From IMG/VR virus record IMGVR_UViG_3300032242_000965, positions 24,101 through 88,100 of that record: a DNA stretch of 64,000 nucleotides. The stretch is one strand, 5' to 3'. The stretch comes from a virus. Each line of letters opens with the position of its first letter. Positions within the stretch are counted from its first letter, which is position 1. A model generated the notes under the pieces. The model was not told the origin of the DNA, made no database searches, and saw nothing but the letters and a program-made list of their open reading frames with translations. The position numbers were made by a program, and so were the translations under genes. Positions 3,738 through 60,400 of this stretch are shown piece after piece.

Positions 3738-3794
3738 GCTTTATTTATATCCCAATTATTCTTATTTTTAATAACTTATATCTTTTAATTTCTG

Positions 3795-23301: not shown

Positions 23302-23438
23302 TTATCTTTCGTAGGTTCTTCTTTCTTAGAAACCTTTTGAATAGGTTCAGGAAAGTAGGGTTCGATGATATAGTGATTACTTGTCCACCAGCCAAGTCCT
23401 GACAATGCTCCGATTACTATATATGTTGCTATAAACAT
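23298..23438 (-). CDS. 46-aa membrane peptide MFIATYIVIGALSGLGWW...
   Basis: Overlapping start/stop junctions on both sides (TAATG, ATGA). Confidence 0.6.
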   Translation of the reverse strand: MFIATYIVIGALSGLGWWTSNHYIIEPYFPEPIQKVSKKEEPTKDK

Positions 23439-24082
23439 TATTTCTCCATTAGTTTATTAACGAAATCTAATAATAGTGTATGATGTGTACCGTGATGATA
23501 CTTACCCTTCATCCAACTATAACTATCATACCAAAACTGTTCACTCTCTGGGTGACAACCTATTAGACCGATTCTATTTTGAATAATAGCCATCGGATCG
23601 TTATTACTATATGTAGCAATAGTTTCGAACTTCAAATTATTTCCTACTAATGCACAACCATCATACCAAAACATATTCATAGGTGTATCTTGCCAAGTAA
23701 CTGATATATTTTTAGCATGTGGTCTTCTTGTATCTGTGCCGGGGCGGCTTAAATATTGCACAGCATCAACACCATCTAGTATATTAAAGTAGTGACTGCC
23801 GGCCCAGTATGCACCCATGCATATACCCAAATAACGTCCACCTTTGTTAACGAAATCACGTATTGCTTTTTTGTTGGGCTTTAATAGTTTATCATATGTA
23901 TCACTATCACCAAATCCACCGGGGAAAGCAACCATATCAACATCATCAAAGAAACCCTTTTCCATTTCATTCTTTGAGAATAAACGGAATTCATAATCCG
24001 AGGATAGTGCTTTGATTATTCCGTTTCCAGACTGAACCGAGCATCTTGGATCATGCACGAAAAGTGCTATTTTTGGCTTCAT
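23438..24082 (-). CDS. BPL-N / class I glutamine amidotransferase-like protein
   Basis: FPGG oxyanion strand, YLGICMGAY nucleophile elbow, HPE; likely start MKPKIAL at 24082. Confidence 0.8.
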   Translation of the reverse strand: MKPKIALFVHDPRCSVQSGNGIIKALSSDYEFRLFSKNEMEKGFFDDVDMVAFPGGFGDSDTYDKLLKPNKKAIRDFVNKGGRYLGICMGAYWAGSHYFNILDGVDAVQYLSRPGTDTRRPHAKNISVTWQDTPMNMFWYDGCALVGNNLKFETIATYSNNDPMAIIQNRIGLIGCHPESEQFWYDSYSWMKGKYHHGTHHTLLLDFVNKLMEK

Positions 24083-24083
24083 T

Positions 24084-25073
24084 TTACACCAGATGTTGTT
24101 TGAATATTTGCCAGGCATTAGACCAACTCCAACGCTGACTTCCTTTTTCTACTACATCTCTATTTAACCCCAAGCAACGATCCACTGCTATTTTCAGGTC
24201 ATCATCCATGAAACCTGTTATCCCGCTATCAATTACATCTAATGGACCGTCTGCAGGATATGCTGCAACGGGAGTTCCACAAGCCATTGCCTCTATCATC
24301 ACTAATCCAAATGTTTCCCAACGACTAGGAAACACAAATACTTCTGCATTAGCGTAATACTGTGCTAATTCTCTACCTCTCTTAGCCCCTGCAAAATGTA
24401 CGTCGGGGTACATCTTTTTATAAGTTTCTAACATAGGACCATCACCTACCATAATCTTTAAATAATCCGGATAGTCTAATTTAAAGAAATCCTCAAGATT
24501 CTTTTCTTTACTAACACGACTAACACATAAGATATACTTAGCAGTTGTTTTTTCTCTTAAATCAGGTGTAAAGATTTCGCGGTCTACTCCTCTAGTCCAA
24601 CTAACAATCTCACCATCAAACCCATGACTATGCAAATCTTTAACCATTGTATCTGTAGTAGTTAATACTTTACCTGCATGTTTATGAAACCAACGAACAT
24701 ATGCCCATGTAATAGTTTCAGGTACACCTATTAGTTTCTTTATACCTTCAGGAAACTTAGTATGGTAAGCAGTATTGTACCTAATACTACGTTTTGTAAG
24801 ATATTTTCTAGCAGACAAACCAAGAGGACCTTCTGTGGCGATATGGATATGATCCGGGTTAATCTCCTTAATCGTCTGGCCGATTTTCCTGGGGTAGGTA
24901 ATCTTGACTTCATTGTACATAGGGCAATCAACATAGCCGTACCTCCCGGGGTCAATATATACAACATTATAACCATCAAGAACCGCACACGCCTCAATGT
25001 TTTTGTATGTAGTAACAACGCCATTTATTTGATTAGGTAAGTTGTCTGTTACTATTAATATCGTCTTTGTCAT
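24084..25073 (-). CDS. GT4 glycosyltransferase, Agt-like (putative glycosyl-diacylglycerol synthase)
   Basis: TDxxxxQINGVV, HIATEGPLG, YHTKFPE, RGVD, RVSKEKN, ETFGLVMIEAMACGTPV. Confidence 0.85.
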   Translation of the reverse strand: MTKTILIVTDNLPNQINGVVTTYKNIEACAVLDGYNVVYIDPGRYGYVDCPMYNEVKITYPRKIGQTIKEINPDHIHIATEGPLGLSARKYLTKRSIRYNTAYHTKFPEGIKKLIGVPETITWAYVRWFHKHAGKVLTTTDTMVKDLHSHGFDGEIVSWTRGVDREIFTPDLREKTTAKYILCVSRVSKEKNLEDFFKLDYPDYLKIMVGDGPMLETYKKMYPDVHFAGAKRGRELAQYYANAEVFVFPSRWETFGLVMIEAMACGTPVAAYPADGPLDVIDSGITGFMDDDLKIAVDRCLGLNRDVVEKGSQRWSWSNAWQIFKQHLV

Positions 25074-25821
25074 TTTCTTTAGTCCATGTTATTATTTCCC
25101 AGGTACCTTCCCAGGTTTCTACTAATGCTGTGCAACTTTCTACCCAGTCACCATCATTCATATAGACTATATCATCTACTAATTTTATTTCAGCATGATG
25201 AATATGACCACAAATTACACCGTCAAATCCCCTTTTCTTACAGTATGCTATAAGATTTTTTTCAAATTGGAATATGAAGTCAACTGCTTTCTTTACTCTT
25301 CCCTTAAGATATTGGCTAAGACTAAAGTACCCAAAACCCATACGATGGCGTAGCCAATTGAATTTAGTATTGAACGAAAGAATGAAGTCATATGCTTTAT
25401 CTCCTAAGAATGTTAGCCAAGGTGCTAATCTTGTTATACCGTCAAACATGTCGCCATGTATAACTAAGTAATGTTTACCATCTAATCCTATATGTTCACA
25501 TTGATTACAGACTTCAACATTACCAAAGCCAATATTATATGGCATTAGTGGTCTAAGAAACTCATCGTGATTCCCAGCAACATAAATAACTCTGGTACCA
25601 CGCTTACTATGACCAAGAATACGGCGAACCACATTTGTATGCGATTGTTTCCATCGCCATTTGTTTTGTTGAATTCTCCACACATCTAGTATGTCTCCTA
25701 CTAAGTAGAGAGTATCACATGTATTATGTTTAAGGAAGTTGTTTAATGCATCTGCCTTGCTATCACGTGTACCTAAATGTACATCACTAATAAAAATTGA
25801 GCGATAGGTTCTCTGTGTCAT
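25033..25821 (-). CDS. Metallophosphoesterase, PlcP/LpxH2-like (putative phospholipase C)
   Basis: FISDVHLG, YLVGDI, GNHD (His rather than the Arg of LpxH GNRD), HGD, GHIH, NDGDWVES; likely start MTQRTY at 25821. Confidence 0.85.
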   Translation of the reverse strand: MTQRTYRSIFISDVHLGTRDSKADALNNFLKHNTCDTLYLVGDILDVWRIQQNKWRWKQSHTNVVRRILGHSKRGTRVIYVAGNHDEFLRPLMPYNIGFGNVEVCNQCEHIGLDGKHYLVIHGDMFDGITRLAPWLTFLGDKAYDFILSFNTKFNWLRHRMGFGYFSLSQYLKGRVKKAVDFIFQFEKNLIAYCKKRGFDGVICGHIHHAEIKLVDDIVYMNDGDWVESCTALVETWEGTWEIITWTKENDKDDINSNRQLT

Positions 25822-25853
25822 AACAATATTTATCGGATAAATCCATGATATAT

Positions 25854-25872
25854 TGTGACAAACGTGTGACAA
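25854..25872 (-). promoter_or_regulatory. Pho-box-like direct repeat TTGTCACA-CGT-TTGTCACA
   Basis: Two GTCAC half-sites at 11-bp period about 33 nt upstream of the PlcP-like ATG; resembles the PhoB consensus CTGTCA(T/C)-N4 repeat. Confidence 0.7.
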
Positions 25873-25875
25873 TGG

Positions 25876-25895
25876 AAAACCCTCTAAGAGGGTTT
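25876..25895 (-). terminator. Hairpin terminator insulating the Pho-box-like promoter
   Basis: AAACCCTC-TTA-GAGGGTTTT. Confidence 0.6.
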
Positions 25896-25915
25896 AATAA
25901 AGGAATACAATAAAT

Positions 25916-26168: not shown

Positions 26169-26297
26169 TTAGATAGTCTCGTAATCTTCTTTGCCTACAC
26201 CGCACTCAGGGCATAGAAAGTCTTCAGGTAAATCTTCCCATTTACCTTCTGTTTCTTCATCGTGGATGTGTCCACATACTACGCATATATGTTCCAT
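26169..26297 (-). CDS. Rubredoxin, 42 aa (MEHICVVCGHIHDEETEGKWEDLPEDFLCPECGVGKEDYETI)
   Basis: CxxCG and CPxCG pairs; TAATG coupling to rubrerythrin; missed by ORF track. Confidence 0.9.
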   Translation of the reverse strand: MEHICVVCGHIHDEETEGKWEDLPEDFLCPECGVGKEDYETI

Positions 26298-26749
26298 TAT
26301 TGGACCTCCTGTAACATTCTTTGATAAGCACTGGCATGACGTTCTTCAACTTTCTTTAGTGCGGCAAAACGCTTTTCTGCCTTTTCTAGTAGTTCAATAA
26401 ACTCACGTGCATGTTCTTTGCTTTCTGTGATTTGTTCTTCGGCCTCTTTAGCGGCTTCAATGTTACCTTCACTCTCAGCGATTGCTTGGAATTGTGGGTA
26501 CATTGTAGTGAATTCATATGTTTCACCGTCGATTGCTTTTTGTAAACATTCTTTTGTACTTGGCTTACCGATTAATAACTCTAGGTGTCCCCAGGCATGT
26601 TTAATCTCTTGGTCTGCTGTATGTTCAAAATGTTTTGCTACATCTTCAAAGCCTTCTTCACGTGCGATACGTGCAAAATAGCGATACTTGATGTGAGCCA
26701 TACTTTCACCTGCTAATGCAGATTCTAAATTTGCTAATGTTGCTGACAT
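26297..26749 (-). CDS. Rubrerythrin (diiron ferritin-like domain)
   Basis: ALAGESMAHIKYRYFA, EIKHA, GETYE, ESKEHA. Confidence 0.9.
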   Translation of the reverse strand: MSATLANLESALAGESMAHIKYRYFARIAREEGFEDVAKHFEHTADQEIKHAWGHLELLIGKPSTKECLQKAIDGETYEFTTMYPQFQAIAESEGNIEAAKEAEEQITESKEHAREFIELLEKAEKRFAALKKVEERHASAYQRMLQEVQ

Positions 26750-26758
26750 GTTTTTCCT

Positions 26759-27007
26759 TTATTTAATTTCTGGTAATCTTTTGATACTCTTGTGTTTGAC
26801 AATTATAACATTGTTAATTTTATTTTCAAACATAATGGGTAAATCTAAATGAACCGTTACATAAGGTCCATCGACTGGGTTTAATTGTGTATCATTGCCT
26901 ATTGTGCCCATAAACGGGATATCATTCCATGTACCTGTAACACGATCACCAATATTATATTTACTTTTGTAGGTTACTCTATCAAAATAATCTTTTAGAC
27001 TTGCCAT
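26759..27007 (-). CDS. Hypothetical SH3-like protein
   Basis: ORF track. Confidence 0.65.
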   Translation of the reverse strand: MASLKDYFDRVTYKSKYNIGDRVTGTWNDIPFMGTIGNDTQLNPVDGPYVTVHLDLPIMFENKINNVIIVKHKSIKRLPEIK

Positions 27008-27008
27008 A

Positions 27009-27956
27009 TTATATCCTTCTTTTATTAAGAACTACTTCAGGAGCACAATGACAACCTAGTTGTCTACATATTACAGGTTCAATTACTGGGTTAAAAACTT
27101 CAATGAAGTTCTTATCGTGTATTGAATAGTAATCTCTTTTACCAAATAAGAATTGCCCACATGTTCCTGTAAGACAACCATTGAAACTTATAAAAAGGTA
27201 ATTAACACCTAATGTACAACTCCATCCTACAAAGTTATTTAATGAATGCATGATAGGATAGTTTTCGTTTTCGGGTTTTACTATACTACCATTATCAAAT
27301 AACAATGAGATATGATTTGTTACACTATTGGTTATACCCTTTTTGTGATTCAATACATATTCAGATTGTGACGTAGTATACTCTATTTCTCCATTAATGT
27401 AAACTGGTTTGGAACTAAGAGAAAAATCAACACCCGATGATTTCAATTCGTCAACTATACTAACACACTTATCCCAATGTGTGTGATCCATTAATACATT
27501 CACACCAAATGTAACATTCTTATCAATTAGTATTTTAGTTAACTCAATAATATGGGAAACATCCACTTGTTCATGGTGTACGCTAACACTAACATTATTA
27601 AACAAATGCCCATACTCTTTCCACCAACGTAATGTGCGTGATCCATTAGTCATTATCTTTATTTCACAACCTGTATGTTGAATTACATATTCTAAAAATT
27701 CTTCAATGTCAGGCCATAATGTAGGTTCTCCGCCACCTAATACTAACTTAATATGTTCTATATTTTGATTGTTGCGATAATAGTTAATCAAATGAACCAT
27801 GTTCTTTTTTACTATATCAACATCAGGCCAAGGCATGACACCAGTATTACATCCTGGAAAACAGTACCAGCATTTGTAATTACATATATCACTAGGTGTA
27901 TAACTAATCTCTAATGAGTTAGTTGCCTTAGTGTTTTTAATTTCTATAAGTTTCAT
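27009..27956 (-). CDS. Radical SAM protein with C-terminal Cys (SPASM/twitch-like) domain
   Basis: CNYKCWYC, GGGEPT, TNGS; C-terminal cysteines. Confidence 0.85.
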   Translation of the reverse strand: MKLIEIKNTKATNSLEISYTPSDICNYKCWYCFPGCNTGVMPWPDVDIVKKNMVHLINYYRNNQNIEHIKLVLGGGEPTLWPDIEEFLEYVIQHTGCEIKIMTNGSRTLRWWKEYGHLFNNVSVSVHHEQVDVSHIIELTKILIDKNVTFGVNVLMDHTHWDKCVSIVDELKSSGVDFSLSSKPVYINGEIEYTTSQSEYVLNHKKGITNSVTNHISLLFDNGSIVKPENENYPIMHSLNNFVGWSCTLGVNYLFISFNGCLTGTCGQFLFGKRDYYSIHDKNFIEVFNPVIEPVICRQLGCHCAPEVVLNKRRI

Positions 27957-29901: not shown

Positions 29902-30300
29902 CCTGAGTTTCTGTTACGAGGTATTTCTTACCCTAGGATGCTTTTATCAAGCAGCCAATGCGAACTGTGAGTCGTTTGCTTTTACTTTTTTTGCTTCTTC
30001 GGTCGGGTCTAACGTCTTTCTATGCTATGGGCATAGCGACTATTACTTTTCCCCCAACCCTAACGGCTTCTACATTGCCGGACTGTCCATTTCATTACTC
30101 TTGACCCTGTCGAATCTAGGTCAGGCCCATCAAAAACATACTATGGTCTATCCGCACTTATAGGTTTCCCTAGAGTAATCCGGTGTACCAGCCCTGATCC
30201 CAACCTTTCGATTTTGTAGAGATTTAAGTATGTTTATGGTGGACCTGGCGGGATTCGCACCCGCGTCCAGAATCCTTTTCAATTCACTTCATACAGTCTT
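29878..30300 (-). ncRNA. ssrA: Circularly permuted (two-piece) tmRNA; tag ANDSQFALAA
   Basis: On the minus strand the acceptor piece ...GGACGCGGGTGCGAATCCCGCCAGGTCCACCA (3' end 30237) comes before the coding piece GGGCCTGACCTAGATTCGAC... (5' end 30128); 7-bp acceptor stem with G3-U70; tag frame 29979-29947 ending TGA TAA. Confidence 0.93.
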
Positions 30301-30306
30301 AACTTG

Positions 30307-30312
30307 TATTTA
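30307..30312 (-). promoter_or_regulatory. TAAATA late-promoter-like element upstream of tmRNA
   Basis: Same motif as upstream of virion genes; about 6 nt before the predicted tmRNA 5' end. Confidence 0.6.
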
Positions 30313-31581
30313 ATCACAACTAAACAATTCTGTAAACATATTTTGGACATATTGACTGTTGTTCTTTCTAAAGACCCAAACAGGTTCTATAAATACACCG
30401 TTCTTACTATTGTCTACAATATTGTGAGGTCTTACTTGCAATCTCATTCCAATCTTACCCAAATAGTGTGCATTTGGGTATGTCAAAATATCGTCAACCA
30501 TATCATCGCATAAGTTCAATCGTGTACCTTTTGCGATTCTAGGTTCAATGATATTAATCATCATATATGCATCATCACGTAATGTATCCCAAATCATGCG
30601 ATTCACTTTGAAAAAGAAGTCATTTTTCCAACTATCAAATGAGGGATATCTACTATAACTCTGTGTCTCACTATTGTTACTTGCATAGCGTTCTGTTTCA
30701 TAGTACGGAGGACTAGTAAAGTAAAAATCAAATTCATTATGATGCTTACTCCAATCTACATCTTCACTAGGTAGATTATATATTGTTACTGATTTACTAC
30801 CAACACAAGTAAAGTAATTATCATATTCTGTTAGTATAGGAGCATGTCCTAACAATCGTTCATACTCAATGCATTGTTGTTTATAAGTATTATAAACTTC
30901 TGGATTAGGATCACATCCTACGTATTTCTCTGTACATCTTGTACCATAGAATCCTGCAAGTCTATCTCCCCAACCACAACTAGTATCTAGTACGTTGACT
31001 GCATCATGTTTTTCATACAATGCTTTTGCAACACTAGGTTTGAATTGTGTTGCAGTATATGTACCAATTCTAAATCCTTCACGGAACATACTATCGTTAA
31101 TATCTCTATTAGCAATGACACCTAATCTCCAGAACTGCCAATTCATCTTTTTTAGTTGATCCATACTATGCCAAATATCCCAGGGACTAGATACAAGATT
31201 ACTACCACACTTCATACGATTTTCTTGTTGAAAGTAATTGCTAACACTATTATAAACGTGTGACTTATCTATAACACCTAATGGGTTATCTTCATACTTA
31301 TATTTGTAATCAACTTTTTCTAATACAACATCAAAGTCTTTATATTCACCCATCATTGATGTATTACGAAACTGTAAAAACAATTCGTTAAGTTCACTTT
31401 TTTCAATGATTCTACTTGGGAAAGGTATGTTGTTACTAGTGATATATTCTGCTAGTGTGTCTCTGATATCTTCTTTGGAATATAGTTGTATAAATTCTTT
31501 CCAATCAACATTACTAATATTAGGTATTCCCCTACTATCGACATGAGTTTGGATATAAGTTAATACGGATTGGTTGAGCAT
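30310..31581 (-). CDS. DNA amino-methyltransferase (m4C/m6A)
   Basis: Motif I VLDTSCGWGDRL, motif IV FTSPPY; upstream TTGCAA-N17-TACAAT (31588-31616). Confidence 0.8.
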   Translation of the reverse strand: MLNQSVLTYIQTHVDSRGIPNISNVDWKEFIQLYSKEDIRDTLAEYITSNNIPFPSRIIEKSELNELFLQFRNTSMMGEYKDFDVVLEKVDYKYKYEDNPLGVIDKSHVYNSVSNYFQQENRMKCGSNLVSSPWDIWHSMDQLKKMNWQFWRLGVIANRDINDSMFREGFRIGTYTATQFKPSVAKALYEKHDAVNVLDTSCGWGDRLAGFYGTRCTEKYVGCDPNPEVYNTYKQQCIEYERLLGHAPILTEYDNYFTCVGSKSVTIYNLPSEDVDWSKHHNEFDFYFTSPPYYETERYASNNSETQSYSRYPSFDSWKNDFFFKVNRMIWDTLRDDAYMMINIIEPRIAKGTRLNLCDDMVDDILTYPNAHYLGKIGMRLQVRPHNIVDNSKNGVFIEPVWVFRKNNSQYVQNMFTELFSCD

Positions 31582-45403: not shown

Positions 45404-48400
45404 TTAATAATGTCCATATTGCAGAAATCTAGCAGCCGGGCTTGTACTAATCTGTAGAGGATCACCGAAATTGCTACTATAATTGATAGTATTCCAAACT
45501 TTTCCATAATACATTGGATCTAATACACGACTTGGGGTTAATCCATAAATCTCAGTATATTTTGAATTTAGTTGAATTACACCTGTACCCATAAGTCCTC
45601 TGGTCAATCCAGATAGTGTATTAGTAATCCTTACAGTACCTGTTCCAGTACCAATATGCATGGCTACAAATTTAATACCTAGTGTGTTACTTGGCGCCCC
45701 GATTAGCGTAAAATCAGTATTTCCTATTGTCTCAATAGTATATGTTGTACCAATCATAATATCAGTAACTTTTATTATAGGTTCAACCTGAGTAAAACGT
45801 ATTTTTTCTCCGTTTAACTCTAATATATTACCAACTGTTAATGTCACTAATAAATTTTGACTTAATGAAGCCTGCGAATTATCTACAAATACTAATGCTG
45901 GTCTACCATGTATAATTTCTAACACATATTTGGAACTATCTACATTACTACTTGAAGTTTGATTATATACAACAGTTTTCATAACTGAATTAATATTACA
46001 TTCAACATAAGCAAATATTGTCCCTGCAGTATCCATATCTACTATAGTAGTCTGGGTCACAGTATCTAGCAATTTACTCACATCATATACCTGTATAGAA
46101 GTATCGTTTGAGTTGAAGTCTTTGGTTAACCATGTTCCATCTCCGATATTTGTAAGGTAGACTGTTGATTTTCCATATTTGTCAATATCTATATTGAACA
46201 TCGAACTATTAGGAGTATCCCCATCAAGTGTTACTGTTATTAGTACGACATCATTTAAGTTTATGGTAGCATCGATGGTTAAATTATTTGAGTTATCATA
46301 ACTTAATTTATCCGACCCTATACGACTTCCATTAATAGTTACCCATGCCTTATTTACATCGGTATATAATATAGGATCCATATCTACGCCGTTAACGGGA
46401 TTACTAAATGGTTGCGGAATAGCAAATACGTTTTGATTTGCAGTAGCAACAACTTTCCTAGTTTGTATAAACAATCTATCAGTTTCATTGAACGTAGTAA
46501 CTGCAATAGTATCAGAAGTTATTGGACTTGTAGTTAATCTTAATTCGCCGGTACCAGAATCTATATAATAATCATTGTTTTGCATACCGAGTTTTGGAAC
46601 TAATCTTAATCCATTTTTCTCAACGATAGCATTAGCAATATTTAATTTACCTATGTTATTAGTAAGAACTATATTGTTAGAGGTACTATTGGTAAATGTC
46701 TGAGTCTCAGGAATACTATATGATAGTTCACCATAAGTATTTGCAGGTCTAAAATTACTTATACCAGTATCAAGTATTGTCCAAGTTATATAATCTGTAT
46801 CTTGATTATATAAAGTGTTGAACGTCAGTTTAGATAAATTAGTGTCTTCTATAAAGGTACAGTTGTAATCTGTTCGAAATGCCAACTTAACACCATTATG
46901 GTACACAACCGGTGGATTAACTAATGGTTGATAATATAAATTCAAATAAATTTCACTATGGTTAGTAGTTGAATTAGTTCTAAAAGGTATATGTTGTGAG
47001 TTTCCCCTAGCCAGTTGTTTGCCGTTTCCTACTTCATATACTTCTATCATTAATAGTTTGTTTGCAGGTAACGATGATGGGTTGAGAGGATCTAGTCCAT
47101 AATATGTGACTACTTTTGTAATCCAATTAATAGTATAGCCTGTGTATATTCTGTTGCCTAACTTAGTAGTGCTATCAATAATAAACACACTTACTTGTGC
47201 AGGATTTCTTAACAACCCATCAAAACTAACTGTACCAGTTGTACTAGTAACCGATTTCATTCCAAAGCTAGTATGCTGGAAGTATGCTTGTTGCGGGATG
47301 ACAGGAGTACTATCCCAATTTGATCCTGGCCCTGTCATTACCTTGATTGATAATGTTTCGGTGATGACCCCTGGTATTAATTCTTCTGGTCCGTAACCAT
47401 ATAAGAAATCATTTCCTGTTATAACACTATCTGGTTCTGCAGGTGTTAACATACTTATACTTGACCAAGTATTTGTATCTGAACTTCTTATGATAGTTGC
47501 ATTATCACCTACAATATAGTACCATGTGCCATCATGTGTAATATCATTCAATGTATCTACTGTCAATGAATTGTTTGTTTTATTAGACCAGGTAATACCA
47601 TCTGTACTAGTAATGATGGTCCCGTATTCTCCTACAAGTACAAATCTGCTATTTACATATGCGCCGGCTGTTAGATTACGTGTTACACCTGAAGAAGTTT
47701 GTACCCAGTTATGACCGTTTACACTATACCATACTGTTCCATTATTTCCTGCAATAACAATGATATTATCATTACTTACTACTGTGTTAATAGTTTCTAT
47801 GGTTATATAATCTTGTAATGTCCAAGTAACACCGTCTATACTTGTTATAACTATACTACAGGTAGTTACTTCCGGTGCGGCTGTACCAATACCTGACAAT
47901 ATTCTATTACCGCCACCAACTGCAATATATCCTTTGAATGCTTTGGTAGAAATCTCACTAATATTATAAATTATATTACGTGTTTTTGTACCAAAAGTAT
48001 ATTGCTTATTCCAAACAATTCCCTCAGCACTACGTGTAATAAACGATCCTACACCATAATAATATCCATCACTGCCTTGTATTATTTTATTCACATTGTC
48101 AGCAGGATATGATTCTGCGCTACTATCAAATGCATCATCATCAAAACCTACTTGGTCTAGTAATGTTGATTGACCTTGTCCTAACCAATCTATACCATTG
48201 TAACTCAATAAGACTGGATTATGCGCGGTTAGTGTTGAAACCAAATACTTGTCTTTACCATAAATTATACTTGTTACATTTAATGAATGTTCTGCTAATA
48301 TATGGTTATGCCATGTCACTCCATCTATACTGGTCATTAATATTGACTTGTCTGCACTTTCTCCAATTGCTATATATTGGAATTTATATGCACTTGCAAT

Positions 48401-51400
48401 CTTAGTAGATTCATTATAGTTAGAGGTTAATGTAATATGTGAATCGTCAGTAACAACATCAACTATATACCCGAAACCGTTAATAGATAATTTTGTACCA
48501 TGTGCTAATTCTTTGTCAAATAATGTACCATTACCAACAACATTTTTACTACCATGTGTCAATAACAATGATCCAGTTATCAACACCTGATTATTATTAG
48601 TAATAATTCCCTTGATACTTAATGTTCTAGGATATAGTTCTTGACCTTTCAATGCCACATCAATCGGAATAATATCTTCTGGGCTGAAACTATTACCATA
48701 GTATACTGTACCAGGATAACTTATACCACTAACTAATTGTGGTAAGTCTTTTGCCGGCATATTGATAGCAGGTTGATAGTAAGCCACAATTCTGTCTAAT
48801 GCATTTATTGACCTATCGTCACTTTGTAATAATATCCATTTAGTTGAATCAAATACTGTATCGTTGTTGCTTTCAATACAACGCCAAACTCTATCAGCAT
48901 ATGATACTATAGAACTAGTATCATACTTATAACTTAATCCAAGCATGAATGGTTCTGGTATATATGCAAAATCTGATATGTTTGCAGTATCTGAATTATA
49001 GTCTAATAGCGTAGCATCTTCACCGGTTATTAGATTAATAGATGTATTATCTACTAGATTATTATTATGTTTATAATTGAATTCATCATATGTCACGGGC
49101 TTCTTCATACCTGGGTCATGGAACACTTGTACTTGTGTTTCATTTATAGGTTGAATATAATAAATATCAAACACTTTAGGGCTGACTCCGATTACTGAAA
49201 CTGATGATATTCCACCAACTATGTGTGCGCCACCGGATGCTGGATTACTAATTGTTTCTACAGTTATTTGTACATCATTAACTCCAGCAAGTCCGCCTAA
49301 TGCTGATCCGGATACATTTATCACTTCACCTACATAATGCTGTGTGCCACCGTCAATAATTTTAACAAAATATGTTTGTGTTACATCATATGGATTAAAT
49401 CTAGGTTTATGTATTTCAATTAATCCTCCGTTTCCATTAGGATTGGATACAGAGGTTGGATCTGAATTATGATAGAAATATGTTTTGGCACCTTGAATTT
49501 GTCCAGGATGTAATCTACTAGGTGTATAATCTAATCTTACTATTACATTATTAGAACTATCATATGTTACCCCGTGATCCACAGTAGGACCTGAAATGGT
49601 TTCTGACTTTATAGGTAGTACTGCACCTTGCAAACTAGCAAAATTACTATCTAAAGCAACACCTTCAACAGTAATATTTTGTATAGAGCCTGTGGTTGGT
49701 GCTGGGTGTAAAGTATTAGTTACAGCTGATGCACGTGTTACTTTACCTAAATATGCTTCAACAATATTAATAGTTAAATCATTTGTTGTAGTACTACCAC
49801 CCAGTCTGTCACCTGATATCATTACAGTATCACCGGTTACATAATTTGTGCCAGGATTACCAATATTAATTGTTGCAGTATATTTTGAAACTGCATATTT
49901 TGCAAAATATATACCATCATCACCGGTATAGTCACTAGCCAATGTCATTAGTACGTTACTACTAACAGTACCCACAGTTGCTAAAGTATGTAAATGAAGG
50001 ATAGGACTACCATCAGTATTAAATTTGTCCTGAATTCTTATAACAAACTCAGGTAATACTTCAGTAAAGTTAGTACCTTCACATGTATGCTTAATACTAG
50101 TATCCGTGATTGTTTGGCTTACACTAATAGTACACTTAGATATATAACTAACACCTGATTTAGTACCAGGAACGTTTATATAATCGGTAATTATATAAGG
50201 TGTTACTCCACTAGCCGCAGTACTTGTAACATAAGCACCTATTTCTATAGTCCCTGAGGTTAGTTCTATTACATATAAATCTGTGCCATCAATAAAACAT
50301 TTGAACTCACAAGCAGATGCACCAGTCACTACATTACTACCTTTTGTAAGTATTAATACTTTACCTATGAAATCCTGGCTAGTTGTACTAACTGTCACAT
50401 TAAATCCTGCACCAGTGCCTACTCCACTAGTAGTATCTTGATTTAAGGGACCATAAGAAGTTGATACACTATCTACTACTATAAAGCAGTTATTTGTTCC
50501 TGTAATACCAGATAGTGTTGCACCAGGCACAGTAATTGTATCAAATACTTTATAGTTTTGTCCCCCGTCGGTAAGTTTTGCATTGTAACTTCCACCCAAC
50601 AATACATTAGTTACTGTGAGCTTTGCACCTGTTCCTACTGCACGACTAAAGATCCAATTAGAGTAGGTTCCAGATCCGTTAATAACATTAACATTAACCG
50701 TAATATTAGATCCATCGATGATGGTAATAATACCCTGTAAATTAATATTAGTGTTTGAGGTATAACTAATTTTTACTAACATCCCAACTTGATATGAACC
50801 GACTGTGTTAACCGCCCACGTTTGTAATGTAGTCTCTAAATGTATACTAGAACTTGAAGTTGTACCGGTATATCCTGAACCAGTGACTGCAACGGGGGTA
50901 GTTGAACCAGTAATATCAGTATACGGTCTTCCATGATATGCTACATCTACTGTTTCAGATATTGTTACATCACTACTGACTGCACTTATACCGAATTGAT
51001 TATACTTACTTCCCCAGAATTTATTAGGTTCCCACGGTACTATTTTTGAAACATAACTAGTTCTATCAAATCTTAATGTATTTGATATACCGCGAACATT
51101 TAGGTTGCTAGTGATTGCAATTGCACGTCCAGTTACACTGAATATGTATTCATTGCCGGTAAATACCTCAGTAATAGTACCTGCATGAAGTTTTATTCTA
51201 TCATGACCAATCAAACTAGCATTCAATGTTTTATGTAATGTTATTGATAGTAATTCAATATCTTCTATTTGTGCAATTACATATACATAATAGTAACCGT
51301 CTACGATAGATCCTTTACCGTTAACGCAAGATGATTTAATTAAGTCACCTGTTTGTAGATAAGTGCTAGGGACAATGATTGTATCATTAATAAAGTTAAG

Positions 51401-54400
51401 ATTGCTTTGTGCAAATTTTACATCATAACTACTAGTAAATCTAATTTCAGGAGTAACTGGATAATTCTCACCTGGATCTATTATATTGATAGATATAACT
51501 TTACCATCAGACATAACCGGTTCTAATACTGCTTCACGTGTTGGTGATGGATATATTGTAGTATCAATATGTGCAGTAATTTTGGGCGGGTCTATATAAC
51601 CTCTACCAGTTTCTAATACAACTACACCGGGTAGATCCATAGTAATAACTATACCTGGATAATGGTCTGATACATAAGAATTATTGATCCCTCTAGTTAA
51701 TCCTGACACCAATCCAGTGTCTCTATTAACAGTATTATATCCTATAATTTCACTATCAATATACAAGGTACCTGCGTCAGGCATACCTCTAGCATTATCT
51801 ATTAATAATGTATTACTAGTAGGTGTCATATATATTTTCAGTATACCTATCTCAAAGTTAGGTATATCTTTTAATGACAATCCATAATTACTATGCCAAT
51901 CAGTATAATTACTGTTGGTCCATATGCTATCTCCAATTGCATATTCATTCTTTGTATTGTTAGGATTTATAAAAGATAGTTGTGGACTTATAAATTTACC
52001 TGTTTTAGAATTATATATTGGATTAATATCAAAATCAGTCGTGTTTGAATATACATTATCAGTATGTGTATAACGCAAATCAAAATCTTTAATGACAGTA
52101 TGATATGGCTTAACTTCATTAATATAACCACTTAGAAGTGTTGTATTATCTACGTGGTAATTTACTTCTTGTTGCAAATCACGAACCGTATAAGTTACAT
52201 CTGCAAAACTAGTTTTATTTAACCATGGCAGATAGTTATTACCGCTTACATTTTCACTTTGTATATATTCAAACATCAGTATCAAACTCTTATTACGATG
52301 TTCTAATAGTGGACCAGTAAAGATTTGTTCATTTAATGCACGAATAATATAATATGTTTCTAGCGCAGGGAATGTATCGAAACTATCAGTGTCAAAGAAG
52401 TTGTCACCGAATCCAATCTTATTAGTTTGATAGTCCCATAATTTACTTGAGAACTGTATTGTTCCGTTTTGCAATCCTATACGTGTCCATGCACCGCTAG
52501 TGTATATGTATACTTCACGCTTTCCTTGACCGTTCTTAGCAACACCTACAATAAGTCCCTCTGTAGCAGTTAATTTGTATAAGTCTGCATACATACCAAC
52601 TTCAATTTTTGTTTTTGTCGTATCGTTATATCCAGTTGCCCACCAATAGATATTAGACCAATAACTACTAGTATCAAAATAATCACCCGACATGGCTAGA
52701 TATGTTAAATTACTAAACTCATTGATAGGATACTGAGCAAGAACTTTATTAGCATATCCTAAATAATTTTTTAATGCATTGAATCTATCAATAAACATAC
52801 TTTGTCTAGGTCTTACACCAATACCTGTTTGCATATAAGCAGGTAATGTATAGTTTGGAACACTAGAACCTATCAAGTCTACACCAGCAAAACTTTCTAA
52901 TAATCTATTATACAATCCTTCTGGACTATCATGTCCTAAACTATAGTTTGGTAAGCCTGGCAAGAAATCACTAGGATTATTATTTTGTATTAATTTGAAT
53001 TGATTCTGTATTACGGCTTCATTTGATCCAGAACCAAAACCTAAATGCATATTAGTATGCAAGCCGTTTATATAATCACGCACATTATACAATGCATAGG
53101 TATCACTACGTAATGGTGCCATGTATGAAATACCTGAATTTTGCGGACGAGTTATATATCTTTCTAGTATACTATCAGTTAATGTCTTATCACTATTATG
53201 TACTGCATTTGTATTTCTTACCCAGTAATAATAATTCTGTACTAGACTATTATTAGAATTAACTGCATATGTTGATGTATACTTTTGTAAATCGTATGGT
53301 GTTCCGGGTCCTGTATAGTTCACAGGAGTCACATCACTTTCTATCCAAGTATATACAGTTACATCACTACCAGGGAAAATTTGTCCCCAATACTTAGCGT
53401 TATATGCCAAATCATCCTGATGATAATTCAAGAACCTAGTAGTACTAGTATTGAACCATGTTTTACCAACTTGCTTGATACTCCAAATCATTGTACTAGA
53501 AACTGTAGTTCTATGATTATATCCGGCTGGGTCAGAGATTCCAATAAAGTCTAAATTCTCTCTTACCGCACCTAATAATTTACCACGTAACGGATCGATG
53601 TAATCTAAACTAACTAGATTTTCATCAGTAATGTTGTTATATAATTGAACTTTTTGAATCTTATCAATGTCAACTACATTTGTACTATTTCTATAGATAC
53701 TCCAGTTTGGTGATCCATATGCATTTTCATATACAGTAACTCTTCCACCAACTTGATCAGCTACAAAATTAGGACTACCTATTACAATAATGTTATCATT
53801 GAATGAAAGACTATTACCATACAAAGGCAATGCTCCATATACTGATATACTATCATTAACTGGTTGAGAATAAATGTATTCACCTGAGTTCAATAAACTT
53901 TCATTATATGGTTTGATATAATCATACATATAAGCCGCGCCTGCATTATAGAATACATCTTCAAATGTAGTAAGATTTAAATCAAACACAGTATTGTAAT
54001 GCATCTCGCTGCTTATCATATCAAAGAATGTACCAGCATAACGATCGGCTTTAGGTGCAGTAACTACAAAACTATTTTGTTCATTGAATGCCACTCTATA
54101 CCCAAACTGACTGTTATTCTGTACATGTGGTTCTCTGATAATTTGTGTCTTGGTATAAGGTGCTATACCCATTAGATAGAAGTAATTACCATTAAATGCG
54201 GTTATGTTAAGTTTATTATTATCAGCACCTAACTCAACACTTAACAAACGAATAACCAATCTGTCATCTTCAGTTACATATGCAAATATGTTCGGTACTT
54301 TAGTGAGATTAATTGCATTTGCAATTCCATATGCATCAAGACCATTAGTAAAATCTAGGAATACTGAATAACCATTAATAAACAAAATGGTTTTTGATAC

Positions 54401-57400
54401 TGATTGTCCACCTATAGTAATAGGTTGTAGATTAGCAACTATCTCGGCAGTTGCAAACCCATAACGTTTAGCTTCATTAGTAAAACGATATACTGCTCCG
54501 TTTTGACCTGGCTTAGTTTGGTCATATATTGCACCTACTATTACTTCACTACCGGTATTGTTGGTTGCTATGCTAGTTCCAAATTGTTGATTGGCTATTA
54601 CTCCGTCAATATTATCATAACTAGTCAATGATTGCATTAATACTAAACTAGGACTACTTACTGTGATAACATCACCTGCTTTAATACCTAATACTTTACT
54701 AAAGAATATTTCTGGGATCTGACCTGCATATCTAACATTATAGAATGTCTTTGACAATGGCTTACCGTTAAGAGAAATTCTAGTATGATCCATTAAGAAG
54801 TTATCTAATGGCCAAGGTAATGCAATTACTAATATATCTGGGTTATAGTCTAACTTGAATGTTTCAATTAATCTATCAAACGCCCAAACAATACCAACAT
54901 TAGGTGAGGGAGGAATAGTTTCATTATCTACTAATCTAACATGGTATGTAGGTGAACCAATGAATATCTTACTTGCATCATAATTAACAGCGATGCTTGC
55001 ACCAAAGTTATCATTGCTTTGGTACAATACTGTTTTCCATGCAATTGATGCCATTACAGGATCACTACTAGTTGGTCCGTTATAATTACTATCTAGTGTA
55101 ATAGTTTTTGTTGTAGTTCCAGTTATATTAGCTATAGTAAATGTATCATAATCTTCAGTATTAGTATTGTAAATTGTAATTGTGCCACCTTTCATATCAG
55201 ATATGATAGATAGTGAAAATGTTGCATCCAATGTTACAGCACTACTACCGTTAGTTACTGATACTAAAACTTCTCTAGGATTCTTCAAATCACCTGGGTT
55301 TTTACCTAAATAATAAGTGTCAAATGATGACATATTAATAGGTCCCATAAAGTTAAACTGGTTATTAACAGTGGCAATGAATATATTGTTAGATGCAATT
55401 ACATCACCGTTATTTAAATCTATTTCTTGTAAGTATGAAGATCCGTGATTTATATTTTTATTATCTATGAAATCATTTCTAATTCCAGCCAATTGATTAA
55501 TACTAAGACTATATCCTATACGTTCAACTGTATGTATTACTGTTTTATCTATAGTAGTAGTAACTATAATTTCTGAATCTTTAGCAGGAGCAACATCTAA
55601 TATAATCTTGTCTTTTACTAATTGATAATTAAATATGTTAGACCATATAATTTTTGCATTGATTGGGCTGGTTGTGGTGTTGCCCTTAAAATTACTGTCC
55701 AATGTTATAATTTTTGTTGGATTAGAAGCATCTATATCAGCGATAATAAAGGTATCATACTTGTATGTATTGTCATTATAAATTACAATCTTTCCACCTA
55801 TCATGCTAGTAGTAACTGCAATGTTGATTGTGGTTACTATATTACTATCGTTAGTTGCTGATATTAATATAGTTATTGGTGCAGACACTTGGATGTTGCT
55901 GTAATTTTTTGCAAGGTGTCCATAGTTACTATTGGGAATAGCAATATCAATTTTATTTCGCACTACTCCGGTTGGATCAGTAGAAGTCAAATCAAAGGTT
56001 GTTGTAGTACCATCACCAATTAAGGTATCTATAATAGTGTCAATATACTCGCTAGTTATTACAGTAACATAGTCAGGTAATAAGTTAGTATATGTCCATG
56101 CCGGAGTATTGACAGGGAAATATGGTTTAAATTCTAAATGAGTTGTTAGATATGTATAGTAGGTATCTAATGTCTTAAATAACAAATCATATGAAAGTGG
56201 ATTACAGTAATCATTGACATAAAACTTAGTAACATTTGTATTTAGGTCATATACATAGTTAGTCAATGTGACAAGATAATCTGTGTTATCATTAGTCGGG
56301 TCAATTGCTATATGTGTGCCAGGAGTTAATTCACCAGAAATTGAGAAATAATAGTTTCTACGTGTTGTGCCAAACGTTCTTAGTGACAGTTCAGGATTAG
56401 TAGTATCCAAGTCCTCAGCAGGTACATTATGTGCACCGTCATATGTCCATTGAATAGTTGCATTGATTGTTCCGGTAGGATCAGGATAATTGCTATCTAA
56501 TGTTATACTTTTAGTTGTAGTTCCAGTTATATTGGTTATATTAAAGGTATGACTTCCAATAGTAATTGTACTATAATTCTTCATGTCAGATATGACATCT
56601 GTGGAATTAGTAACTATTGTAGGAGAATATTGAGTTACACCTATTCTTAAATTAATTTTCTTTCCTTCAAACCCAAAACCTAATATTACAGAAGTATTAT
56701 ATTGTTTATATTGCAAGAATGTAATACGTTTGCCCTGTGGTATAGAATTTTTTGCGTTACCATCAACTACAAAGAATTTATCTAATGGATTTGTTGGTGC
56801 AGCAAGTTGTGATATTAATGGTGTATCTTGTTTATTACCTAATACTGGCAACAATGTATAATCAACTTGACGATGGAAGTAAAGTACGCTGTTAACTTTG
56901 GGTGCGCCTACAAACAAATAGTTGCTATCACCACTAAATGCCATACTAGTACCTGCATATGTACCGTTGACAGTTAATACTTGTTCTTCAACCAATGCCG
57001 CTACTTCTTGTAGTGATACAATTCTATAAACATATAATTTACTTACTGTGTCACTTGGCTGGCTTACAATCATAAATTCACTACTGCGAGCCATAGTAGT
57101 ACCAAAGCCTACATCTTTTGTGATAGTATCAATTCTAATAGTACCGATACCACTACGAATATATTTGTAGACTCTTCCTACTGGACCTAAATCAGGATCT
57201 ATATAGTTAGGATCACTTATGTAGTAACCCAATTGCGGTAGATATGCTACTGCACTACCTAATTTACCATTGTTGATGTTTGGTATTTCAAAGTTAACAT
57301 CATAGTAGTTAATATTCTTTTGATATACTGCCCAGTTATTAGTTGCGGTTTGGTCTACCCAAACTTTTGCAGTAGTATATTCAAAGTTTAATAATGGTAA

Positions 57401-60400
57401 AGTGTTTATCTTAGTAGGTGAACTTACTCTCATTGGCTGAAATCTATATATTAATACAGGATTATCAAACATAACTGTTGTTATATTTGATGCCAATGCC
57501 AAAGTAATAATTATAGATTTGTTATTTGATATTTGTTCTACTGTGTAAAAACCATTAATGATAGTATTAGTGTTTGTATCTTTATTGATAACAGCAATTG
57601 TATCATACTGTGATAATCCATGTGGTGTAGCGAAGTTTATTGTACATGTGTTATTCAAATTATTGACTAATGAAGTCATCATTAAGTCTAAACCTATAGG
57701 GGTATAGACATTCCAATCACCCTGTTTATCAGCAATCCAAATATAGTCATTCTTATAAATTAAATTTGTTACCAAATTACTAATACGTTCAACTGTATAT
57801 GAATATAATGTGATATCGTCCAAGTTAGCATACCCCGCACTTGGTAAACTAGTAATACTATTATCACCTATAGTAGGCAATACACTAGTAGTGTTTATTG
57901 TGCGACCGTAGTTTTTAATATTATATAATGGTACTTGTTGTTCTGCTATATCTACATTATTACCATTAATTAAACTTACGATTGCAGGATTACCTGTCAA
58001 TAGATTTTCATCTAATGTGAATTCTACAAAGTTATGATTTAGTACACCACCGTACTCACTATTCTTAATAGCCCAGTTTTCATTTATAGTATATGCTAAA
58101 TCATTATTCTGTATGGTAGCACCTTGGAAACTATTGATTATATCTAATGTTCCCTTTTCTGCAATCATATTTTTATAGATGTTAACTTGTGATATATCAT
58201 CTAGGTCGGCATCTGCTAGATAACTACGAGGTCTATAACCAATCAATGAGAAGCCTAACAAGTCACCGTCATTTTGAATATTACTTCTACGTGTATCATA
58301 GTAATATTCACTTTCACTTGCACGTGTATTTGGGTTAGCCAATATACCTGTATCAATCTTGTCATAACTAGTTAATGACCAGTCATTAAAATCAAACGTA
58401 TTAGTTGGAACGATAACTGTTTTATTAGCCATCCAGTATTTGCGCTTGTATATTACAATCGTACCTTTGGTATACTTTGTATTTTCTTTCCAATCAACTA
58501 CGTTGTTTTGATTTTGTATAAAGCCAGGTGCGTATAGTGTACCGTCCCATTGATTAGTCTTACTACCCTTAAGGTATAATCTTTGTTGACGCAACCCTGT
58601 AATTAAATTGTAAAGTACATCATTGAATACAGTTTCATTATCAAAAATAACGATATGTTCTGCAATACTAGTATCCGCACGTAGATAACTTATTGTATCT
58701 CCGTTAGTCAATATCTTCATCTTAAACGTTGTATCTTTACGATAGATAGCCAAATCATTTAAATTGACCGGTATTAGATTTTGATTTAATACAAAGTTAT
58801 TTTGAGTTAATGTGAATGGTTGAATAATTCCAATTGGTTTCTCAATATGGAATTTATTTGAACATGGATTCAAATTGATTACGCTTCCAACTTCCCATCC
58901 AGTCTGCACCCAATATAATACTTCTGCAATCATTTGATTCCAGTCTAGTACTGTATTATTTTCTACATCATCAAATATTACGCCCTGTGTTGTTAGATAA
59001 TTACCATAACTTGCTAGCAAGTTAGCCAAATCAGTTATATTTTTATATTCTGTACCATAACTAGTATATTGCACCTGAGTTGAGTATTCAGAGTATATAT
59101 TAACTTTAAGATTCAATACAGTTATTAACTTTTGTTTTGTAGTGTTAGTAGGTATACTTGAAATAAAATATGTTTTATTTTGACTATTACCGTATACTTT
59201 ATATCCATTGGTAGTCTTCTGTACTATAACTGAACTATAAACAATAGTATCATTTGGTTCATTTGTATATTGTAAGATAGTATAACTATCATCCGGTACT
59301 ATCAATGAACTATTAGTGCTATTAGGGGATCCTTTTTCTATATAAAAGTTTACTTTATTTTTATCTGTATATCCACTAACTCTATAACTTAATCTTACAT
59401 CTACATAGGTTATAGTATTAGCAACTTGTTGTGTACCAGGTAAGCCATATTGATTTAGATAGTCAATGATCCAATTCATATAACTATGAGCAGCACTATT
59501 GGCATCATTTCCATATAATTGAAGTTGTTGTCTACCCGTAGTTCTAAATCTATTGTAAACTAGATATTGATTAAACTCATAGTTATATTTGTATACATCT
59601 AAGTCTAGTCCTAATGTAAAGAATTGTGCTGGCTTTGCTAATGCAAATATACGCATTAGGTCAAATGGCCATGTACTACTCTTTCTATAACTATATTCAG
59701 CAGGACCCACGTCACCAATAACCCAATCATTGTTGAATGTTGTTTTATTGTAGTTACGTATTACTGATTCAAACGGGCTTAATAACTCGCCTCTACTATT
59801 AACTGGTAAAATACTTAATAAGTCAGGTCTTATATAATTTTTATCGATATATGACTCACCATTATTATATATGTAGCCGTTACTTAAATCAGTCCATAAC
59901 AATAGATTCTCACTAGTATATGGTCCTAATCCATAACGCTCGTCCCACCAAGTTGGCTTAACTGGTAACCCTAGCATTTCCCAAGGAGTTGCATGAGGTG
60001 TTGCGGTGTCATAGAACCATAAATATATACCTCTCCAGTAACCCTGTTTAAGTGTAGTGTTGTCTAATTTGTTTTTAGCCTTACTATAATTCCATGTATA
60101 TTCATTAGTGCTGTCATAGTATTGGCTTGCAGTATCAATGCGATTTAATCCAACCCAGTTTAAGTAACTGGTTTTGTATAACTGCATTATCTGGTCGTAT
60201 GAATAATCAGTAGTTCTAAATTGTCCTGGGAATATATCTGCATATACTATTGGAGTTTTAGCATTTACTTTAATGTTATTATAAATTCTACATTCAAATT
60301 CAAATAGTACTTTGTCTCTAAAATCTATGATATTACCATAATCATCAAATGTATCATACATCTTTGTAAGACTACCATCATGACCTTTAATGAAGTAAGT

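Follow-up and report, generated by a model that had tools for sequence, protein, structure and literature searches.

The 64,000-nucleotide (nt) stretch of DNA analyzed here, hereafter the window, covers positions 24,101 to 88,100 of the IMG/VR virus record IMGVR_UViG_3300032242_000965 and encodes, on its minus strand, a metallophosphoesterase that is directly followed by a family 4 glycosyltransferase (GT4). We consider it probable that these genes form a phage-borne version of the bacterial plcP–agt lipid-renovation operon, placed under Pho-type control. What carries this reading is the identity of the genes, their family placement, the coupling of plcP to a glycosyltransferase, the conservation of a promoter motif and the sharing of that motif with pstS. 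Among bacteria, the Pseudomonas aeruginosa pair PA3219/PA3218 (plcP–agt1) has been characterized by lipidomics and heterologous expression (PMC8528852), PhoB-regulated plcP–agt operons have been described in Sinorhizobium meliloti, Phaeobacter MED193 and SAR11 HTCC7211 (PMC4796936), and the biochemistry of GTcp/Agt has been reported as well (PMC8231724).

The record from which the window is taken is 88.1 kb long and, at a CheckV completeness of 25%, implies a genome of ~350 kb. Its source is a phage. Besides a thymidylate synthase and virion proteins, the record encodes a large terminase that among cultured phages is closest (~51% identity) to those of the jumbo myoviruses PA5oct, Phosso and Atu_ph07. 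Megablast and blastn searches with the region and 20 kb of flank returned no close GenBank phage. Read 5' to 3' on the minus strand, which carries nearly all genes of the window, the locus consists of a hairpin, a Pho-box-type repeat, the element GATAAATA, an ATG, and then three coupled genes, plcP-like, agt-like and BPL_N/GATase-like (Table 1).

Judged by its sequence, the phage phosphoesterase is a PlcP-type enzyme and not LpxH. It carries the metallophosphoesterase motifs DVH, GD, GNHDE, HGD and GHIHH, and the residues D13-x-H15, G42-D43, G83-N84-H85, H122 and G205-H206-x-H208 were invariant in 45 phage and cellular sequences. The initial annotation had pointed to a metallophosphoesterase with GNHD in place of the GNRD of LpxH, and this distinction was borne out upon comparison with four true LpxH sequences, all of which read GNRD, whereas the phage protein and the PlcPs share GNHD. 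In Pfam only the general Metallophos family was matched, and both equivalog models for LpxH were missed, with scores of 47.6 bits for NF003743 (cut-off 134) and 36.6 bits for TIGR01854 (cut-off 190).

The phage protein is 53% identical (E 3e-91) to the P. aeruginosa PlcP (PA3219-type) encoded beside Agt1. A tblastn search of plasmid-labelled records returned a P. aeruginosa gene (53–55% identity) lying directly upstream of a family-1 glycosyltransferase, that is, the PA3219–PA3218 (plcP–agt1) arrangement, while the identity at the S. meliloti PlcP locus was ~47%. A word-index homologue search was swamped by phage copies 77–95% identical to the query and yielded no cellular names. When the LpxH model was run against five proteobacterial genomes, the PlcP paralogues scored 38–55 bits, as compared to 218–335 bits for the true LpxH found in four of the five.

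The same separation was apparent in a maximum-likelihood tree of 69 sequences (quick method, LG+G4, support from the Shimodaira–Hasegawa-like approximate likelihood ratio test, SH-aLRT), which included every second cellular and every fourth phage locus. The long branch that sets LpxH apart measures 4.84 changes per column and has 100% support, and the jumbo-phage PlcPs were monophyletic (97%), beside a cellular clade (93%) that contains both characterized PlcPs. Tested in this way against both families, the enzyme grouped with PlcP. The homologues from Pelagibacter phage Mosig EXVC030M and Synechococcus phage S-SRM01 have long branches and could not be placed with confidence.

What the phage enzyme shares with LpxH is the fold, the metal-binding scaffold, a helical insert and the automatic label, "UDP-2,3-diacylglucosamine pyrophosphatase LpxH". 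Its sole sequence match among solved structures was an LpxH PDB sequence, at 22 bits, and the best fold matches of an AlphaFold2 model (mean predicted local distance difference test score, pLDDT, 81) were LpxH–lipid X structures, with a template modelling (TM) score of ~0.55. In the model, two long helices (134–197, lower confidence) occupy the site of the LpxH lipid-binding cap. We nevertheless rejected the LpxH label, given the scores below both equivalog cut-offs, the GNHD motif, the fully supported split in the tree and the occurrence of the PlcP-type protein as a separate paralogue in LpxH-bearing genomes.

The partner enzyme, again as far as its sequence tells, belongs to the Agt-like GT4 subfamily that adjoins plcP in bacteria. 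It matches the Pfam families Glycos_transf_1 and Glyco_transf_4 and is 37% identical to P. aeruginosa Agt1 over the full length; the Agt/GTcp clade is reported to share less than 25% identity with other GT4s (PMC8231724). For its placement we relied on the separation of scores across whole genomes: Agt-like matches scored 243–263 bits, and every other GT4 scored 104 bits or less. These scores, the identity to Agt1 and the homologues found next to plcP in bacteria (see below) uphold the Agt-like assignment proposed at the outset. The initial annotation had further described a GT4 that overlaps the phosphoesterase gene and bears Agt-type motifs. The overlap stands, at 41 nt, but the motifs are present only in part. 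With respect to the GRVAxEKN, FPSxTDTFG and His-Asp dyad motifs of the SAR11 GTcp/Agt (PMC8231724), the phage protein reads SRVSKEKN and FPSRWETFG; it retains the catalytic His (YHTKFPE), and the Asp of the dyad is replaced by Glu.

Coupling of plcP to a glycosyltransferase gene proved to be a constant feature of the phage loci. Copies of PlcP with 78–87% identity were found on at least 598 IMG/VR contigs, and the plcP-carrying contigs include complete genomes of 322–524 kb. We fetched 80 related phage loci, of which 77 were untruncated downstream of plcP; in all 77, a glycosyltransferase gene directly followed on the same strand, encoding a GT4 in 40 cases and a family 2 glycosyltransferase (GT2) of 240 amino acids (aa) in the other 37. 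The best NCBIfam match of this GT2 (loci L006-L083, e.g., L089:1520-2242 (-)) was an arsenosugar/MftF-type glycosyltransferase, far under the cut-off.

In a bacterial set of 80 alpha-, beta- and gammaproteobacterial plcP loci, a GT4 homologue (36–44% identity) lay directly downstream of plcP in 55 cases, 49 of them within 400 nt and on the same strand. Neither the GT2 partner nor the desaturase and the other genes of the phage island described below were found beside any of these 80 sampled loci. A metagenome-assembled genome of the Burkholderiales combines PlcP-like and Agt-like domains in one open reading frame (ORF) of 622 aa (L100:3001-4866 (+)), which could be either a natural fusion or an assembly artefact. 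Among 50,697 GenBank phage records, a plcP homologue occurred only in Mosig, S-SRM01 and two metagenomic records, none of which had the Agt-type partner.

Upstream of plcP, the perfect repeat of 11-bp period reported in the initial annotation was confirmed as TTGTCAC-ACGT-TTGTCAC, an exact match to YTGTCAY-N4-YTGTCAY and the sole such match in both the window and the 88-kb contig. This is the arrangement of a PhoB-dependent promoter, in which two CTGTCAT-like direct repeats of 7 bp are set 4 bp apart. An exact match is expected by chance 0.02 times per window and was seen in 2 of 100 shuffles. If one mismatch is allowed, however, the chance expectation rises to 0.68 per window, and consequently the number of matches cannot by itself carry the claim of a Pho box.

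The repeat is conserved. In 67 distinct 100-nt regions preceding plcP in phages, the pattern TGTMAY-N5-TGTMAY was kept in 45, with 27 perfect and 18 one-mismatch occurrences, as against 0.1% and 1.3% of shuffles, respectively (1.4% together). Relative to the ATG, the start of the box is at -38/-39 in one class of loci and at -48 to -50, roughly one helical turn farther out, in a second class, to which the window belongs. Its half-sites are TGTCAY in some phages and TGTAAY in others. In many relatives, for plcP and pstS alike, 10–11 nt separate the box from a TAAATA element, while one pstS promoter has 21 nt. Cellular plcP genes are preceded by a box with at most one mismatch in 22 of 80 upstream regions, compared to 0.2% of shuffles, and the P. 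aeruginosa plcP promoter has CTGTCAC half-sites.

The repeat is also found before the pstS genes of related phages. An IMG/VR scan with the pattern TGTCAY-N4-YTGTCAY-N8-22-TAAAT returned 80 loci, 31 of which had an ORF of at least 70 aa starting within 110 nt. Eleven of these 31 ORFs bore a PstS N-terminal signature, in three sequence types, and three more were PlcP; all five PstS-type ORFs that were scanned matched PF12849, with 116–132 bits. The Mosig PstS, being too divergent, had failed as a tblastn query to detect the pstS genes of these phages, which came to light only through the motif scan.

In five related phage loci, pstS lies directly upstream of plcP. The pstS promoters of these loci comprise a TGTCAY or TGTAAT box, a spacer of 10–11 or 21 nt, TAAATA and a ~30-nt leader with AAGGAGA, and at one locus (L066) the pstS box is nearly identical to the plcP box. 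Since the geometry before phage pstS is the same for both box variants, TGTAAY is the same class of site as TGTCAY, and the promoters shared by pstS and plcP tie the box–TAAATA layout to phosphate genes. As a separate observation, box-plus-TAAAT in four IMG/VR contigs (L215, L226, L228 and L258) is followed by the gene for a small protein with a signal-peptide-like stretch (…LATLLIVPSLAFADE), which is 121 aa long in the three complete copies, is cut off in L215 and has no Pfam match.

The element GATAAATA matches seven of the eight positions of the T4-type late promoter TATAAATA. That a TAAATA late element stands 5 nt before the ATG had been recognized from the outset, and the element is indeed kept in relatives, TAAAT being found at -10 to -14 from the ATG in most homologous phage loci. 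It also recurs before other genes. Within the window, TAAATA followed after 1–8 nt by an ATG precedes six ORFs on the coding strand and none on the other, with 0.3 in shuffles, suggesting that several phage mRNAs are leaderless and start from a T4-late-like promoter. These six occurrences are at window positions 3747, 10575, 15879, 25832, 29645 and 45399 (-), with a spacing of 4–5 nt to the ATG. The plcP mRNA itself is probably leaderless, as the ATG comes only 5 nt past TAAATA. The element must be a promoter signal, as opposed to a translation signal, because in the phage pstS promoters it lies ~30 nt upstream of the Shine–Dalgarno site.

Two further statements about this region held only partly. 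The insulating terminator hairpin does fold (-9.7 kcal/mol, z -2.4), but it is weaker than stated: the T-tract is short, and a terminator scan made no call at 25878-25896. At the equivalent position, relatives have clear GC hairpins with T-runs, i.e., terminators. Likewise, it had been stated that no clear sigma-70 -10 element could be seen; in fact a sigma-70-like match, TTGTCA-16-TATCAT (10/12), is present upstream of plcP, yet we rejected it as a promoter, as it was no better than shuffles for the region.

Table 1. Features of the plcP–agt locus, in window coordinates
Feature	Positions	Strand	Remarks
Weak terminator-like hairpin AAACCCTC-TTA-GAGGGTTT	25878-25896	-	20 nt past the stop of the upstream 83-aa gene; marks a new transcription unit
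Pho-box-type direct repeat TTGTCAC-ACGT-TTGTCAC, in full TTGTCACACGTTTGTCAC	25855-25872	-	11-bp period; with the next A, TTGTCACA twice
GATAAATA, T4-late-type or -10-type promoter element	25827-25834	-	5 nt upstream of the ATG
plcP-like gene, 262 aa, LpxH-fold metallophosphoesterase	25033-25821	-	Predicted phospholipase C, phospholipid to diacylglycerol
agt-like gene, 329-aa GT4 (GT-B)	24084-25073	-	Predicted diacylglycerol glycosyltransferase; 41-nt overlap with plcP
BPL_N/class I glutamine-amidotransferase-like gene	23438-24118	-	Third gene of the unit; Pfam BPL_N 41 bits, GATase 23 bits
DesA-family fatty-acid desaturase gene, 236 aa	28925-29635	-	Second lipid gene in the variable island shared with plcP; own TAAATA-4 nt-ATG start

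The plcP-like gene starts at the ATG at 25821 and not at the TTG at 25872. The third coupled gene, BPL_N/GATase1-like, was absent from the initial annotation; its translation more likely begins at the ATG at 24082, a single nucleotide past the agt stop. The atlas clusters of its product are mainly made up of viral BPL_N proteins, and its position and orientation near plcP differ among related phages. The desaturase scored 389.9 bits against NCBIfam NF049918, just below the cut-off of 400, covering positions 9–241 of 385, and its gene adjoins the plcP–glycosyltransferase pair in 14 of the 80 related phage loci. Between the desaturase gene and the plcP unit, positions 26297-27956 (-) contain genes for a rubrerythrin and for a radical SAM protein, the latter with weak matches of viperin- or MoaA-like type; the rubrerythrin gene is again found close to plcP in 4 of the 80 related phage loci. 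Among relatives, the genes for the desaturase, the BPL_N protein, the rubrerythrin and an Ala/Val/Glu-rich protein (see below) are shuffled around the plcP–glycosyltransferase pair. Elsewhere in the window, the largest gene is a single stop-free ORF of 6154 aa (45404-63868 (-)), and ARAGORN called a permuted (two-piece) transfer-messenger RNA gene at 29929-30329 (-), with the tag peptide AMPIA.

From these assignments we infer the catalytic activities, the binding of PhoB, the timing of expression and the phosphorus benefit to a phage of ~350 kb. The transcription unit would begin past the hairpin, with a promoter composed of the Pho-box-type repeat and the phage TAAATA element, and in a phosphate-starved host it would most likely be induced by PhoB, as for pstS of related phages. 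PlcP would then cleave the phospho-head group from host membrane phospholipids, leaving diacylglycerol, to which the Agt-like GT4 would transfer a sugar from a uridine diphosphate (UDP)-sugar. The membrane would be kept intact as glycolipid, and phosphorus would leave it as phospho-alcohols. Given such products, a phosphatase would still be needed, and host phosphatases could turn the phospho-alcohols into phosphate.

A 350-kb genome contains ~7 x 10^5 phosphorus atoms, and the phospholipids of a bacterium number roughly 10^6 to 10^7. By this comparison, the phosphorus of the membrane could suffice for anywhere from several to tens of phage genomes.

Several observations weigh against the operon being what we propose. 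As for the enzymes, the phage PlcPs branch outside the crown of the cellular PlcPs sampled, and hence their substrate specificity could differ; the GT4 has Glu for the signature Asp of the Agt dyad, as do MshA-type GT4s, and Ser for the first Gly of GRVAxEKN. As for phosphate genes, a PF12849 search found no pstS in the window's contig, which is incomplete, or in four complete relatives, and phoH is present in these four relatives but without the box. Regarding control, predicted phage Pho boxes often fail experimentally (PMC10976474). A PhoB-dependent promoter has its box ~10 bp upstream of the -10 element, in place of a -35; the spacing between box and TAAATA is 22 nt in the window, which exceeds the canonical 10–11 nt of many relatives by one helical turn. 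TAAATA is a poor sigma-70 -10 element and may be read by a gp55-like phage factor, one for which activation by PhoB is not known. Counts of TGTMAY-N5-TGTMAY across five related phage genomes did not exceed those of a reversed-pattern control, implying that the box marks particular sites instead of being widespread in these genomes. Finally, a second box precedes the gene for the Ala/Val/Glu-rich protein, which has no known link to phosphate.

The latter protein is acidic and ~217 aa long, and its gene has its own box, a 10-nt spacer, TAAATA and a Shine–Dalgarno leader (L087:1582-2235 (+); L089:780-1436 (-); L207). It is often beside the plcP–glycosyltransferase pair. We found no homologue of it in the window's contig and no informative family match.

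The box that precedes a gene without a phosphate link, the non-canonical spacing in the window and the unreliability of phage Pho-box predictions also bear on an alternative in which the enzymes are correctly identified and the repeat is not a PhoB site. It would serve another regulator of the OmpR family or a phage factor, or else TTGTCA would be the -35 element of a constitutive promoter, for which the sigma-70-like match provides a candidate. Moreover, many relatives have TGTAAY half-sites, which resemble OmpR- or CpxR-type sites as well. We regard this alternative as unlikely: both half-site variants precede phage pstS in the same geometry, TGTCAY boxes occur at cellular plcP genes, and the sigma-70-like match does not exceed shuffles.

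The main rival to phosphate mining as the purpose of the module is a role in modifying the envelope. Here the same enzymes would remodel the envelope to glycolipid, together with the desaturase, for the sake of its surface or membrane properties, and the release of phosphorus would be incidental. Possible aims are the exclusion of other phages or predators, the stabilization of the membrane during a long jumbo-phage infection and the preparation of lysis. The fatty-acid desaturase in the same island fits such a role, as do reports that lipid remodelling alters phage attachment and predator–prey outcomes in bacteria (PMC9938194, PMC9804370, PMC9457565). TAAATA is similar to the late promoters of phages, and expression at that stage would be ill-timed for DNA synthesis. 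On the other hand, the plcP box is the same as that found before phage pstS, a phosphate-uptake gene, and several relatives, as well as the pelagiphage Mosig, have pstS in direct linkage with plcP. This sharing and linkage tie the module to phosphate stress, and we judge an envelope role quite unlikely to be its purpose.

Highly improbable, lastly, is that the phosphoesterase acts as LpxH in lipid A synthesis and the GT4 modifies lipopolysaccharide, as the automatic label and the virome papers that place lpxH under lipopolysaccharide biosynthesis would have it; besides the model scores, the motif and the tree, the Agt-type identity of the GT4 partner speaks against it.

Thus, a phage counterpart of the bacterial plcP–agt operon remains the reading we favor. 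The two have in common the two families, encoded in the same order and coupled (with an overlap of 4 nt in P. aeruginosa and 41 nt in the phage), as well as a TGTCAC-type Pho box upstream. Some phage relatives pair plcP with another glycosyltransferase, as in the cellular gene-arrangement types 3 and 5. The phage version differs in being carried by a jumbo phage, in its proteins, which form their own clade, in the phage TAAATA element with its leaderless-type start and in the Glu at the Agt signature Asp. In addition, the phage island adds the BPL_N/GATase-like gene and the desaturase gene, and about half of the related phages have the 240-aa GT2 in place of the GT4.

Among phage genes, the nearest parallel is with pstS and phoA of T4-like cyanophages and of pelagiphages (PMC10976474), which are likewise derived from the host Pho regulon and placed behind a host-type Pho box. 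Control of cyanophage genes by the host PhoBR system has been shown experimentally, host PhoB binding to some cyanophage promoters (PMC10976474). Those genes, however, import or scavenge external phosphorus, whereas plcP–agt would use the membrane store and rebuild the lipid.

Mosig, whose gene is annotated as "putative UDP-2,3-diacylglucosamine hydrolase" (45% identity), and S-SRM01 (38% identity) were the only cultured phages in which we found a plcP homologue. In Mosig, the homologue is divergently oriented from pstS, and the region between the two genes (L001:4830-5000) mirrors the layout of the window, with TTAACA repeats of 11-bp period and ATAAATA-TTGAT-ATG, where the distance is again 5 nt. 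Differently from the phages described here, neither Mosig nor S-SRM01 has a glycosyltransferase annotated beside the homologue.

We found no paper describing a virus-encoded PlcP or linking PlcP to auxiliary metabolic genes, nor any report of a virus drawing on membrane phosphorus with rebuilding of the lipid. Virome papers that count "lpxH" as a lipopolysaccharide-biosynthesis gene are probably counting plcP instead, and where surveys take PlcP abundance to indicate phosphorus stress in bacteria, phage copies may be among those counted.

The broadest form of our interpretation is one that we put forward tentatively. It holds that a large and widespread family of freshwater and marine jumbo phages uses the host inner membrane as a phosphorus reserve, starvation-sensing host PhoB driving a leaderless phage operon that would convert phospholipid to glycolipid by means of either a GT4 or a GT2. 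In metagenomes, this pathway would then account for the whole "viral lpxH" signal and for some of the "bacterial" PlcP signal, and it would be the first virus-encoded remodelling of membrane head groups in prokaryotes.

With its conserved box–TAAATA–ATG layout, the locus lends itself to testing whether a host response regulator can act on a leaderless promoter of phage type. If the predicted activities hold, these phages would mobilize host phosphorus that is locked in the membrane while keeping the cell intact, thus going beyond the import afforded by pstS, and the module would represent a new class of auxiliary metabolic gene, with a bearing on the phosphorus cycle of lakes and oceans that are poor in this element.

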